Part shown: positions 1,626-10,781 of the stretch, one piece after another
Layout: each line of letters opens with the position of its first letter
Position numbering within the stretch: the first letter of the stretch is position 1
Assembly: GCA_045046875.1 (NCBI GenBank)
Contig: JASFYY010000147.1
Location: 1 to 13,001, forward strand
Origin: Verrucomicrobiota bacterium
Lineage (GTDB): Bacteria; Verrucomicrobiota; Verrucomicrobiia; Verrucomicrobiales; DEV007
Direction of reading: 5' to 3'
Length of the DNA: 13,001 nucleotides
Translations under genes and position numbers: made by a program
Notes under the pieces: model-generated
The model's database searches: none
Seen by the model: only the letters and a program-made list of their open reading frames with translations
What the model was told of the DNA's origin: nothing

Positions 1626-2690
1626 ATGTCTATATCACCTCGCGCCATCGATGCTTTGAAGCTGGTTTCCGATTTGCAGTCACGCTTCGTGAAGGGGCTG
1701 GAAGCAGTGTCCTGTGGAAACGGGGTGGCGGTGGATTTTGCTTTGACGCAGTGGTTGCGTGATGGTGGGACTCACGGTGGGGGCAATCGTTATACGGCGT
1801 CGGACGGTGTGTTTTTTGACCGGGCTTCGGTGAATGTGTCGCAGATCCATTATGAGGACCTTGCTGAAAAGAAGCTGGCTTCGGCGACTGCCATATCGAC
1901 GATCATCCATCCGAGCAACCCTCATTGTCCGTCGGTGCATATCCATATCAGTTGGACCGAGATGAAAGAGGGGGCGGGTTATTGGCGTATCATGGCGGAT
2001 TTGAATCCTTCAGTGGTGCACGAAGCCTATCGTGATGAGTTTATTGAACTCATGCAGCAAGCCGCCCCTTTACAGTATGAAGAGGCATCGGCTCAGGGGG
2101 ATCGTTATTTTTTCATCCCGGCATTGGATCGCCACCGTGGAGTCGCCCATTTTTATCTGGAGAGCTACCGCAGTGATGATGCGCTTGCCGACAGGGCGTT
2201 GGCTGAGGTTTTTGGCAAGGCGGTGATCGATGGTTATTTGGAGATCCTTAGGAAAGCGTCGCAGGGCTATCCGGTTTTTGATGAAGCTGATCGCTCGGAG
2301 CAGTTGGCTTACCACACGTTGTATTTGTTCCAGGTTCTGACCCTCGACCGGGGAACCACTTCGGGACTGCTGGTCCATGATCAGAATGATCTGGGTATCA
2401 TGGGGTCACTGCCTTCGCATGTGGATCGAAAATTGCTGGTGAGTTGGAAGGAGAGTGTGGCACCACCACAGCAAGGTTTGCAGCAAGCCTTGCTTGAGGC
2501 CTTGCCTGAGGATGGGGTGGTGACGGATGAGGTGAAGTTAGAGTTGGCTAAGGCGGTGCGGGAGCACTATAGGAAAAATCCAGATGCGTTGTCATTTCAG
2601 GCTTCGGGAAATGTGGTTCCGCCAACGGTTGAAAATCATAGGTCGTCGTTAGGGGAGAAGGAACCACCAATGGACACGAATAAACACTAA
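1626..2690 (+). CDS. hemF: Oxygen-dependent coproporphyrinogen III oxidase family protein (divergent HemF-like)
   Basis: 354 aa with HemF-like motifs in the expected order: WLRDGGTHGGG, FDRASVNVSQI, STIIHPSNPHCPSVH, DRYFFIP..RHRGV, LDRGTTSGL, GIMGSLP. Confidence 0.8.
   Translation: MSISPRAIDALKLVSDLQSRFVKGLEAVSCGNGVAVDFALTQWLRDGGTHGGGNRYTASDGVFFDRASVNVSQIHYEDLAEKKLASATAISTIIHPSNPHCPSVHIHISWTEMKEGAGYWRIMADLNPSVVHEAYRDEFIELMQQAAPLQYEEASAQGDRYFFIPALDRHRGVAHFYLESYRSDDALADRALAEVFGKAVIDGYLEILRKASQGYPVFDEADRSEQLAYHTLYLFQVLTLDRGTTSGLLVHDQNDLGIMGSLPSHVDRKLLVSWKESVAPPQQGLQQALLEALPEDGVVTDEVKLELAKAVREHYRKNPDALSFQASGNVVPPTVENHRSSLGEKEPPMDTNKH
2661..2690 (+). repeat. AACCAC-type ~10-bp-period short repeat, copy A; supplies the last codons and stop of hemF
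   Basis: gaaccaccaatggacacgaataaacactaa is 27/30 identical to 5520-5549. Confidence 0.75.
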
Positions 2691-3023
2691 GAGGGTAAGG
2701 CAAAATGGTTAAGCTGCTGACCGCTATGCGTTTCGCCCTTGCAGGGCTGGGAGAATTGGATTTTTAACCCCAGCGCTTCGCACTGGGCTATAACATTGAG
2801 CACCGTTGGTGCAAAGGAGATGAAAGCCAACTGTCCTGTAAGGACAAAATGAGGGAGCCCAGTGCGAAGCGCTGGGGTTAAATCGGTTTTATTGTCAGCC
2901 CTGAGCAGCAGTGTAGCGGCACCGAAACAAAGTGGAGATCGCCGGAGGCAACGGGCGAAATGATGCCGATGTGTGATAAGGTAGCTCTCAATAAGCAATG
3001 GCTAACTTTTTTGTCCTGCACTC
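2691..3023. mobile_element. 333-bp non-autonomous MITE-like element (copy 2, complete) with 9-bp target site duplication
   Basis: AAACACTAA lies directly on both sides (2682-2690 and 3024-3032). The left end GAGGGTAAGGCAAAATGGTTA matches the reverse complement of the right end GAGTGCAGGACAAAAAAGTTA at 15/21. A second copy is at 1-191. No credible coding capacity. Confidence 0.8.
2729..2962. repeat. REP-like inverted doublet (REPIN/BIME-like) inside the MITE
   Basis: Perfect 27-bp inverted repeat 2763-2789 / 2856-2882. Outer pairs cagggctg 2742-2749 / cagccctg 2896-2903 and tttcgccc 2731-2738 / gggcgaaa 2953-2960. Local hairpins gccc-ttgca-gggc, gcacc-gtt-ggtgc, gtcct-gta-aggac. Confidence 0.8.
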
Positions 3024-3105
3024 AAACACTAAATGTGAATGGTTTATGGTTTGATAAAGATGTTGCGTTACCCATACAGTTGAGATTTTCTGACTATTGA
3101 ATGAA

Positions 3106-3879
3106 ATGAATTCCACGCCCCCTCCCATTCCTAACCATTCCAGGCCTAATGGTGAACCCGGAAGCCCGTGGAATATCTGGGCAACGACTGGGTTTACGTT
3201 TGCGATCATGGCTATTTATCTAGTTGTTCAAACGCTGGTCTTTCTGGTGTTTATGTTCATCTTGTCGGCTAAGGGCGATGTGGATGTGGATGTGGAAGAA
3301 CTCGCAGAGAGCGGTTTGTTTTTTGGCATCGCCTCATCGGTGTCGGCAGTGATCAGCACCTTGTTGGTGATAGGATGTGTGGCGTTGAAAAAAGGTGTCC
3401 GCATTGTTGATTATCTAAAGTTATATCGTCCCCGGCTGCGTTCTATCGTGATCTGGACGGTTTTATTTTTTGTGATTTTCACGCCAATAGACTGGTTGCG
3501 CATTGAGGTTTTTGAAAAGCCGGTGGTGCCCGAGTTTATGCTGGATGCTTATCTGAGTTGCGATTTTTTACCTATTCTGTGGTTTGCGATATTGATTGGT
3601 GCGCCTTTTGCAGAAGAATTTCTTTTTCGCGGCTTCGTGTTTGAGGGTATCAAACATACACGAATGGGAAGCGTTGGCGCGGTGGTGATTTGTTCGCTGG
3701 TGTGGTCAGCCGTCCACCTTCAGTATGATTTGATAGATATGAGTGTGGTTTTTTTGGGAGGCCTGTTCCTCGGAGTAGCAAAACTGAGAACCGGCACCTT
3801 GTGGGTGCCGATTATTTTGCATTTCATTTGGAATTTGGGGGCAATGATTCAGACGGCTATGGCGGCTGCGCAGGTTTGA
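3106..3879 (+). CDS. CPBP family (Abi/CAAX prenyl protease type II-like) intramembrane glutamic endopeptidase
   Basis: Multiple hydrophobic helices plus family motifs APFAEEFLFRGF (EExxxR), WSAVH (FxxxH-like) and ILHFIWN (HxxxN). ATG at 3106 preferred over TTG at 3097. Confidence 0.88.
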   Translation: MNSTPPPIPNHSRPNGEPGSPWNIWATTGFTFAIMAIYLVVQTLVFLVFMFILSAKGDVDVDVEELAESGLFFGIASSVSAVISTLLVIGCVALKKGVRIVDYLKLYRPRLRSIVIWTVLFFVIFTPIDWLRIEVFEKPVVPEFMLDAYLSCDFLPILWFAILIGAPFAEEFLFRGFVFEGIKHTRMGSVGAVVICSLVWSAVHLQYDLIDMSVVFLGGLFLGVAKLRTGTLWVPIILHFIWNLGAMIQTAMAAAQV

Positions 3880-4071: not shown

Positions 4072-4120
4072 TAGGCTGGCTTCGCGTAAAAAGCATCCTG
4101 CAGCCCTTATAAAACGGACT

Positions 4121-4138
4121 TTGTGAAATTTTTCACAA
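4121..4138. promoter_or_regulatory. Palindromic operator TTGTGAA-ATTT-TTCACAA (Rex consensus; core also fits CRP-family TGTGA-N6-TCACA)
   Basis: Exact match to the established Rex box TTGTGAAWWWWTTCACAA, upstream of NADH dehydrogenase genes. Identical copy at 10580-10597. Confidence 0.75.
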
Positions 4139-4145
4139 ATTCATC

Positions 4146-4174
4146 TTGCCGATGTTTTTGTCTGCGTCGATAAT
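4146..4174 (+). promoter_or_regulatory. Sigma70-type promoter of nuoDEFG
   Basis: TTGCCG (4146-4151), 17 bp, GATAAT (4169-4174). Both hexamers and the spacing are conserved in the duplicate upstream of nuoH. Confidence 0.65.
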
Positions 4175-4216
4175 CCCGCGACTTGGAACAACTCGGAACA
4201 GAAATCGTTTCCCGAT

Positions 4217-5476: not shown

Positions 5477-5643
5477 GAAGAATTCAGGAGTTAGAATTCA
5501 GAATTCATGCAGTCGAAGAGAACCACGAATGGACACAAATGAACACTAATTCAGGAGAAGAAGTTTAGGAATAGGAGATAGAGCCGAGGCGAAGACGAGA
5601 CAGACGGAGTGTAGCGAAGTCAATTTAGAATTTAGAAAAGAGT
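5477..5643 (+). repeat. Purine-rich nuoD-nuoE spacer with AGAATTCA(G) short repeats and an AACCAC-type repeat (copy B, 5520-5549)
   Basis: agaattca at 5479, 5493 and 5500; aattcaggag at 5481 and 5548; gaaccacgaatggacacaaatgaacactaa at 5520-5549; aatttagaatttagaa just before nuoE. Confidence 0.65.
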
Positions 5644-9398: not shown

Positions 9399-9854
9399 TT
9401 ACTGATCTGGACAGGGCAAATGTTCGATGTCATTTTGGTCTTTCGGCCGATTACTTGCTTTTTTGGCACGAATCAGGTCGTTTGAATTTAAGAAATTGAT
9501 TTCAAGTCCATCTACGCTTTCGATTACGCGTTGCGAATAAGCCGGTTCAAATTCCAGTCCTTTCATTTTCATCATCATATCGATGCGAATAGGTTCGTTT
9601 CCCATTTTCAGCACATCAAACTTAGTATCGAGGAAATCTTCTTTTTTAATACCTACTGATCCAGCACCAAACCGGTCAAGCACTACCATCATCCGCGAAG
9701 CGTTTGTCTCCGTGGGATGGATCCATCTATCGATGTCTCCAGTATATCTTGGGTAACCGTGAAAAGTAACTGCATATCCGCCTCCGACGAGATACTCAAT
9801 GCGCTCTTCGTTCAACAGCTGTAAAAACTCTTTGAAGTCGGGGTAAATTTCCAT
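9399..9854 (-). CDS. Minimal nucleotidyltransferase (Pol-beta superfamily, DUF6036/AbiEii-like), putative TA component
   Basis: YLVGGGYAVTFHGYPRYTGDID (GG...DxD), IRIDMM (third acidic residue) and C-terminal LIRAKKASNRPKDQNDIEHL. Alternative ATG at 9860. Confidence 0.85.
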   Translation of the reverse strand: MEIYPDFKEFLQLLNEERIEYLVGGGYAVTFHGYPRYTGDIDRWIHPTETNASRMMVVLDRFGAGSVGIKKEDFLDTKFDVLKMGNEPIRIDMMMKMKGLEFEPAYSQRVIESVDGLEINFLNSNDLIRAKKASNRPKDQNDIEHLPCPDQ

Positions 9855-10020
9855 CGTCATCCAGTTTGATCATGAGGCTGCGTAATTGCTCTAAAGCCCG
9901 TAGCCGCTCACAAGGGCTGTGGTGTTGCCAATATTCCCAACCAGACGCTTTGTCAGCCTCTTCTGCCGAACATCTTTCGATGGTAAAGCGATCAAGTCTG
10001 GCGGTTTTCTGTTTGCGCAT
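9796..10020 (-). CDS. Small 74-aa partner protein upstream of and overlapping the nucleotidyltransferase (putative antitoxin or accessory)
   Basis: ATG start. The pattern EYWQHHSPCERLRALEQLR...PRLQRVF is one I recognise from small ORFs that precede this nucleotidyltransferase type. Overlaps the downstream gene by about 60 nt. Confidence 0.7.
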   Translation of the reverse strand: MRKQKTARLDRFTIERCSAEEADKASGWEYWQHHSPCERLRALEQLRSLMIKLDDDGNLPRLQRVFTAVERRAH

Positions 10021-10559: not shown

Positions 10560-10635
10560 CAGCCCATATAAAACGGACTTTGTGAAATTTTTCACAAATT
10601 CACCTTGCCGATGTTTTTGATCGCGTCGATAATCC
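10560..10635 (+). promoter_or_regulatory. Duplicated nuo promoter module upstream of nuoH: operator 10580-10597, -35 TTGCCG 10605-10610, -10 GATAAT 10628-10633
   Basis: 71/76 identical to 4101-4176 by manual alignment. All 5 differences lie outside the operator and the two hexamers. Confidence 0.8.
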
Positions 10636-10781
10636 TGCAAATTTGAAACGTGGGAGTTTTCTCGTGATTTTTAAATTTCCGCTATTTGCTCTGTTATCAG
10701 GCATCCGCTAGTAGAAAAAGAGGATGCTTTAGGCGGGCAGATTCGGTTGCAATTGTTTATTTTGTTTACTGAAAACCGTTC

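Follow-up and report, generated by a model that had tools for sequence, protein, structure and literature searches.

The element at positions 2691-3023 of the window, the 13,001-nt stretch of verrucomicrobial DNA analysed here, is a copy of a non-autonomous MITE with a DDE-type 9-bp target duplication, and it encloses a REP-like hairpin doublet. Very probably it is a MITE that has ISKra4 ends and duplicates 9 bp of its target; it is likely moved in trans to sites upstream of predicted promoters, and its doublet likely comes from an IS200-like Y1 system. Related genomes hold several such elements, some of which match hairpins of their own host, which makes it likely that repeats belonging to one mobile system are spread by another.

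The element at 2691-3023 and its surroundings

The window is contig C147 of the source assembly (G000; 163 contigs, 94.7% complete). The initial annotation had described a 333-bp element bounded by AAACACTAA, with ends matching at 15 of 21 positions and an inner 27-bp inverted repeat, and all of this was reproduced: AAACACTAA abuts the 333-bp element on each side, its 21-nt ends are identical at 15/21 (counted by eye) and the 27-bp inverted repeat is perfect (2763-2789/2856-2882). Folding of the element region was stronger than in 100 of 100 shuffles (z -6.64). It is flanked by the genes for a coproporphyrinogen oxidase and a CAAX protease (the latter at 3097-3879). As had been reported, no transposase was seen among the window ORFs inspected, six of which were scanned against Pfam.

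A second copy with more than 90% identity had also been noted. The copy is indeed there, cut by the contig start, and it aligns to the 2691 copy in two pieces (94% over 116 nt and 89% over 75 nt) because the latter has an extra ~46 nt within a hairpin loop. The 2691 copy is aged, whereas the 287-bp family consensus ends in GGG, and it is longer than the consensus because ~50 nt stand in for a 4-nt hairpin loop. A ~30-50-nt repeat of this kind occurs in loops of REP-like hairpins in the window (2903-2952) and on contigs C67, C43 and C141 of G000 (38 motif matches in the assembly), as well as in G002 copies and in matches from G003, G004, G030 and G039, and it may represent a tiny mobile unit of its own.

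Table 1. Features of the element and its surroundings in the window.
Feature	Position	Strand	Remark
MITE copy	2691..3023	+	333 bp; family consensus 287 bp
Left copy of 9-bp target duplication; also tail of host repeat	2682..2690	+
Right copy of 9-bp target duplication	3024..3032	+
End matching 3' (right) end of ISKra4 IS	2691..2718	+	counted by eye
End likely from IS left end	2983..3023	-	counted by eye; beyond the 21-nt repeat, suggestive
Cargo arm 1	2731..2813	+	hairpin A 2735-2747; hairpin B 2769-2787 with tag; hairpin C 2800-2812
Cargo arm 2 (inverted)	2832..2960	+	hairpin C 2832-2846; tag 2854-2857; hairpin B 2858-2876
Cargo arm 2, hairpin A	2898-2902 / 2953-2957	+	loop filled by insert 2903-2952
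Secondary insert replacing 4-nt loop of hairpin A	2903..2952	+	~50 nt; separate small repeat
Second MITE copy, cut by contig start	1..191	+	full-length ortholog in G005 C307
Unrelated intergenic repeat, element inserted at its tail	2661..2690	+
Predicted sigma-70-like promoter (TTGATA, 18 nt, TACAGT)	3051..3080	+	consensus match; starts 28 nt past element end

Several other features of the window were recorded. The left 9-mer (2682-2690) forms the tail of one copy from a second intergenic repeat family, which has short tandem units, occurs in the window at 2661-2690 and 5520-5549 and has 52 matches in G000. In the coproporphyrinogen oxidase ORF (2643-2690) the stop codon of G003 and G005 is gone (TAG vs TCG), and the ORF therefore runs to a TAA within the left duplication. 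Both NADH-dehydrogenase gene blocks are preceded by a copy of an 88-nt direct repeat (4101-4188 and 10560-10647; 90%) that contains a palindrome, and a DUF6036 nucleotidyltransferase gene (9399-9860, minus strand) breaks an opposite-strand run of NADH-dehydrogenase genes.

The family is dispersed in the genome and flanked by 9-bp duplications

BLAST and profile searches of G000 yielded 106 family loci, 90 of them with at least one end; since some loci are halves at contig edges, the copy number is ~80-90. Most copies are 85-95% identical to the 287-bp consensus, which was built from 47 of them. Among 41 genomes, full-length matches were confined to G000, G002 and G005. Thirty family members showed no transposase homology. 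The family is short, dispersed and bounded by terminal inverted repeats, as expected of a MITE.

Flanking duplications were assessed in the 35 good-ended, two-ended copies among 48 examined. At a length of 9 bp, six were perfect, 15 had at most one mismatch and 19 at most two, as compared with 0.08 expected for the last class from 1000 shuffled pairings (maximum 1). Nine bp alone stood out, the counts at 7, 8, 10 and 11 bp being 3, 3, 2 and 0. The proposed DDE-mobilised MITE with a 9-bp duplication is thus borne out by 19 of the 35 copies and by an exact empty site elsewhere, while the remaining 16 copies, at their ends and flanks, have no clear 9-bp duplication.

Comparison of 43 G005 copies with G000 gave 17 shared copies, 20 unpaired ones, whose flanks often lay on separate G000 contigs, two with short flanks and four flagged cases. 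The latter comprised one exact empty site, where the flanks of copy L208 meet at a lone 9-mer at G000 C8:39103 with an overlap of exactly 9, one likely empty site on C142, one shared copy with an internal deletion and one unclear case. For the locus 2691-3023 the empty site that had been suggested as a check was not recovered: G005 carries the element, G003 has the neighbour gene with another downstream region, G001, G002 and G004 gave no match at E 1e-30, and contigs of four runs contained no join across the element. Another G000 copy (C44:9402-9546) has lost the stretch between its left end and a 9-nt internal sequence that resembles the terminal repeat.

The ends match those of ISKra4 insertion sequences

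By-eye comparison of the consensus with IS ends showed that the 2691-2718 end agrees with L118 and L121 at 27 of 28 nt, and the 2983-3023 end with an IS relic on G000 C28 at 28 of 41 nt. L118 is a 1865-bp IS in G003 whose transposase scores 268.5 bits with NF033572 (cut-off 205), and it has no 9-bp duplication. Three further full ISs share the MITE ends (L164, 1856 bp; L165, 1848 bp; L095, 1768 bp), all with perfect 9-bp duplications and with NF033572 scores of 247-268 bits, above the same cut-off. A full-length IS with this terminus, as the initial annotation had anticipated, therefore exists in relatives (L118, L164, L165 and L095), and G000 keeps the relic alone, a 204-nt left end of 80% identity that is the only ISKra4 remnant in the assembly. 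No intact ISKra4 transposase is present in the G000 assembly; G005 contains ISKra4 IS fragments. An exact scan with the 21-nt end returned at least 80 titled records, 78 of them verrucomicrobial among the matches listed, and of 201 genomes of the order, 19 from two families contain the end motif (at most one mismatch).

These matches support ISKra4, a Mutator-like group (p-MULT 4), as the putative partner. An enzyme of IS256/Mutator-like type had been proposed, and the Mutator-like DDE part of that proposal stands, in the form of ISKra4. IS256 proper (Transposase_mut, PF00872) was tried and rejected: G000 holds only a fragment of it and the ends do not match.

Between the two ORFs of the ISKra4 genes an A-run is conserved, A8 in four and A9 in two of L118, L164, L165, L095, L232 and L079, and the L118 ORFs are fused in frame, which suggests programmed frameshifting and a natural constitutive copy. 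An A-run between two ORFs has been ascribed to ISMich2 (PMC3942029).

Insertion is often at a fixed distance upstream of promoter-like sites

The MITE often lies at a fixed distance upstream of promoter-like sites, a feature absent from the first reading of the sequence. Flanks fell outside long ORFs in 78 of 112 cases, as against 9% of the genome. A TTG starting at +28 outside the end was found at 27 of 112 G000 ends vs 2.4% background (p 2e-19), with both sides of the MITE represented (18/62 right flanks, 9/50 left flanks), together with TAnnnT at +50-52 (p 6e-5). Other families and ISs show the same TTG, outside 25 of their 198 ends (p 5e-14). A -35-like box lay beside 17 of the 35 copies, on one side or both, compared with 0-8 at 18 other offsets; the +28 TTG is absent from three quarters of MITE ends. 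At TTG-positive ends with a near ORF, the ORF points away in 16 of 25 cases, and at other ends in 29 of 71 (crude ORFs). The promoter predicted at the window copy precedes the CAAX-protease gene.

Members of the ISKra4 group insert upstream of sigma-70/sigma-A promoters, on either side, with a spacing of 13-17 nt as counted there (PMC3942029). The spacing here is 27 nt from the end and 18 from the duplication, and the published range may count the duplication differently. The fixed-distance insertion of that group is therefore seen here as well, relative to promoters that are consensus matches only. Targeting of REPs or other repeats was also considered and rejected, since repeats were no more frequent in the flanks (7 of 112) than in intergenic windows (195 of 3000, 6.5%).

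The interior is a doublet of hairpin units related to flanks of Y1 genes

The MITE interior is a tail-to-tail inverted pair of three-hairpin units. The consensus tag, ATAG, lies inside the three-hairpin unit, and a type-1 doublet (classical RAYT) was found in 0 of 30 family members. Among 15 Y1 flanks, those of gene L247 in G002 gave local alignment scores of 72-86 with the MITE cargo (shuffled maxima 28-36); arm 1 is homologous to the unit downstream of this gene (score 72) and arm 2 to the unit upstream of it (score 57, shuffled maximum 28). G002 hosts both the MITE and this Y1 gene. A cargo-arm profile found 8 matches in 58 Y1-gene flanks vs 0 in 53 distant controls. The unit thus flanks Y1 genes in inverted orientation and also occurs free, as a REP-like unit of a Y1 system does.

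The cargo-flanked Y1 genes are present in G002, G004 and G005. They are IS200-like, encode 150 aa, pass NF033573 and carry Y---Q--HH, the signature of subclass-1.2 TnpA-Y1 (PMC6006769); because of this signature, class 3 TnpA-Y1 was dropped as a source of the cargo. The link between the doublet and HUH enzymes drawn in the initial annotation holds in that the Y1 flanks are homologous to it; the units are three-hairpin subclass-1.2 units, not classical GTAG RAYT ones. A gene flanked by the palindrome, which had been predicted, exists in these three genomes and not in the G000 assembly, where a subclass-1.2-like Y1 gene is absent and where the cargo type was not found beside the six of 15 Y1_Tnp matches whose flanks were inspected. 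With neither an intact ISKra4 transposase nor a subclass-1.2 Y1 gene, neither enzyme is therefore shown in the G000 assembly. G000 also has ~12 similar 330-400-aa Y1_Tnp-domain genes (on C88, C43, C2, C55, C50, C8, C85, C63, C109, C1, C29 and C141), with no obvious flanking REPs where inspected, and on C77 a RAYT-like gene between GGAG-tagged hairpins.

Of 102 cargo units detected in G000, 81 lie within MITE loci and 21 are free, which agrees with the earlier suggestion that the MITE gives palindromes a second route to spread. The free units and the homology to Y1-gene flanks would also fit a REPIN or BIME spread by a Y1 (HUH) enzyme, with the ISKra4-like ends as passengers or look-alikes. Such a reading could likewise account for ends that vary more than stems relative to the consensus (11.6 vs 5.2%) and for an internal stretch that resembles the terminal repeat over ~14 nt. 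It is nevertheless very improbable and largely refuted, as the 9-bp duplications and the 9-bp empty site coincide exactly with the ISKra4-type ends, and the +28 promoter signal is common to ends with other cargo or with a transposase. HUH transposition is not known to produce such target duplications. An ISKra4-ended MITE remains our preferred reading. As a separate observation, the G000 terminal repeats diverge more than the interior between orthologs too (11.5% vs 5.4%), for which misalignment at the edges, conversion between the two ends or selection for dead ends could account.

Hairpin B, tag and hairpin C align end to end with the Rfam model Acido-Lenti-1. Relative to its cut-off of 37 bits, arm 1 (2769-2813) scores 21.4 and arm 2 (2832-2876) 28 bits; in G000, where 150 of 1039 candidates were scored, there are 66 matches, at least five of them above the cut-off and four of those in MITE loci. 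Such scores invite the view that the interior is a functional small RNA or a regulatory leader, kept by the host and distributed by the MITE, and conservation relative to the consensus would suit it: variation in stems is half that at other positions (3.7 vs 10.3% for GC sites), and compensatory changes make up 23 of the 25 two-sided ones in stems, a count that is inflated because copies share descent. However, the motif occurs in inverted pairs and flanks the Y1 genes L137 and L247 at 33-34 bits, and the covariation is equally explained by DNA hairpins recognised by a Y1 enzyme. Moreover, in 17 orthologous G000/G005 pairs the element is as similar as its flanks (95.6 vs 95.5%), and stem divergence (4.3 vs 5.4%, p 0.2) is not significantly lower, so there is no sign of hairpin selection after insertion. 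We therefore regard a host-kept RNA as improbable and favour mobile DNA hairpins, which may be kept among actively copied templates.

The same ends enclose other hairpin doublets in related genomes

At least 72 distinct two-ended elements, in 16 clusters among the matches listed, share these ends; four clusters have transposase homology and 12 do not. Among the latter, again for the matches listed, a REP-like doublet occurs in a member of eight clusters and at least one unit in ten. In control windows doublets were found in 14/1500 and 31/1500 (1-2%), and single REP-like matches in 15-22%. Cargo varies from family to family. There are doublets tagged with GGAG (171-265 bp), one with GCAG (236 bp) and a pair of GTGG type (195 bp); subclass-1.2 units are oppositely oriented in elements of 407-420 bp, and a 100-bp family has yet another palindrome. 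The census is a sample, and the REP detector was designed after the cargo was known; F2, F3, F10, F11 and F12 may share one origin. With a post-hoc detector and possibly a single GGAG lineage, at least four to five captures are therefore counted, and not twelve.

Three families match Y1 flanks of a host genome, and one tested (F12) does not. Family F3 of G004 matches the doublet behind the RAYT-like gene L251 of that genome (score 87 against 26 for the next; its protein reaches 74.5 bits, below the 80-bit cut-off), and F7 of G080 matches the flanks of the G080 Y1 gene L246 (score 195, next 42). The cargo of F1, F2, F4 and F12 had no match in 15 Y1 flanks, including four Y1 loci of G004, the genome of F12, and F1 and F8 contain no REP by the detector used. 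Among the elements sampled there was no full IS with the doublet inside, which is the intermediate predicted.

Given the same element and the same enzyme, the association of ISKra4 MITEs with REPs might still be incidental, the product of one or two old captures in hairpin-rich intergenic DNA with no advantage from the hairpins. Neutral divergence after insertion, the 15-22% of control windows with single REP-like matches, five GGAG-type clusters that may be one lineage and the hairpin-free elements F6, F8 and L076 all speak for this. Against it stand the cargo types, of which at least four to five are unrelated, the two opposite unit orientations (F0 vs F7) and the three families that match Y1 flanks of a host genome; control doublets amount to 1-2%. 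Insertion sites also show no enrichment in repeats (7/112 vs 6.5%), so that neighbourhood alone does not explain the cargo. We consider an incidental link possible, if doubtful.

Two further kinds of element were noted. L190 (G184 C47, cluster F13) is 517 bp long, is bounded by ISKra4 ends, encloses two Y1-type units and what may be the remnant of a Y1 C-terminus (a weak 25-aa match, E 0.001 pairwise; none in an all-element search), and is a candidate capture intermediate. L388 and eight related metagenome loci represent a minimal 87-101-bp MITE with the same ends and a single, different palindrome; several of their duplications are 8-bp rather than 9-bp.

Discussion

The element is real and a variant of a known MITE type; the nesting of a REP doublet in ISKra4 ends is new in the literature searched. 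Like the ISKra4 group, it has terminal repeats ending in C, a 9-bp duplication and insertion upstream of promoters, and unlike the ISs of that group it lacks a transposase and measures ~100-500 bp (PMC3942029). The word MITE is absent from the main text of that paper, and none of the supplement matches listed starts with any of three end 9-mers tested. No description of an ISKra4 MITE or of a REP-carrying MITE was found in the openly accessible literature searched.

Bacterial MITEs such as Correia/NEMIS, RUP, ERIC, Nezha and MITEAba12 are likewise short, intergenic, bounded by terminal inverted repeats and flanked by duplications, fold strongly and are mobilised in trans, as would be the case here (PMC3184786). 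The present element differs from those described there in that its interior is a doublet of an HUH system and not an IS remnant, in its anchoring to promoter-like sites and in combining one end type with several cargo families. REPs, REPINs and BIMEs, with their RAYT, and subclass-1.2 TnpA-Y1 systems also form inverted doublets of GC-rich hairpins with a short tag (PMC6006769, PMC3733652), and their units likewise flank Y1 genes and occur free (PMC6006769), whereas the cargo here has three hairpins, an NTAG-type tag inside and DDE ends around it. REPINs and MITEs are handled as distinct classes, and the IS-REP links reported are of ISs inserting into REPs, the reverse of this element, in the parts of the literature available (PMC6006769, PMC3733652, bioRxiv 2021.07.10.451892). 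Typical terminal structures are generally absent from subclass 1.2 (PMC6006769). Acido-Lenti-1 (RF01687) is listed as a small RNA of unknown function (PMC2864571, bioRxiv 10.64898/2026.10.21.760802). Here, by comparison, its motif is part of a Y1-flanking DNA repeat and of MITE cargo.

Pack-MULEs, which belong to the Mutator superfamily, and MICs consist of ends of non-autonomous DDE elements around foreign DNA. TIMEs, like our element, also carry foreign DNA between such ends (PMC4133298). The element differs from all three in that its cargo is a non-coding mobile hairpin repeat and not genes or gene pieces.

We propose that a Y1-type hairpin doublet came to sit inside an ISKra4 element, most likely through Y1-mediated insertion or as filler DNA in deletion repair, and that, with the transposase body lost, ~28-41 nt remained of either IS end. 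The transposase would then have copied the MITE out via a circle and been guided to promoter regions, as the published behaviour of the group suggests (PMC3942029). The burst would mostly predate the split of G000 and G005; since then the transposase would have been lost, or lies in an unassembled part, and the copies would be decaying neutrally. Such capture would have been repeated several times in Verrucomicrobia, which would turn ISKra4 MITEs into a vehicle for multiplying resident REP families and setting them in front of promoters. As for a function, our guess is that the fold-back doublet helps to pair the ends of a very short element or buffers neighbouring genes. Possibly, though we hold this only tentatively, a promoter-targeting ISKra4 lineage in Verrucomicrobia repeatedly and selectively builds MITEs around the REP doublet of its host, as a synapsis aid or insulator, and the Acido-Lenti-1 RNA is a DNA end-unit of subclass-1.2 Y1 elements.

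REPINs and MITEs are regarded as distinct classes that differ in their enzymes and rates. A REPIN is here nested in a MITE, repeatedly, and about four fifths of a REP-like family lie in the MITE although G000 has no matching Y1 gene. The nesting offers a second answer to how REPs multiply. An Rfam small RNA, Acido-Lenti-1, is reinterpreted as hairpins of mobile DNA, and end structures are assigned to the little-studied subclass-1.2 Y1 proteins. The family also provides a compact natural substrate of 100-290 bp, with ~110 mapped ends, for promoter finding by transposases of the ISKra4/ISLre2 type. If the wider proposal is true, REPs would be hyper-parasites or partners of a DDE transposase, able to replicate fast and independently of their own Y1 enzyme, and would be delivered en masse in front of promoters.
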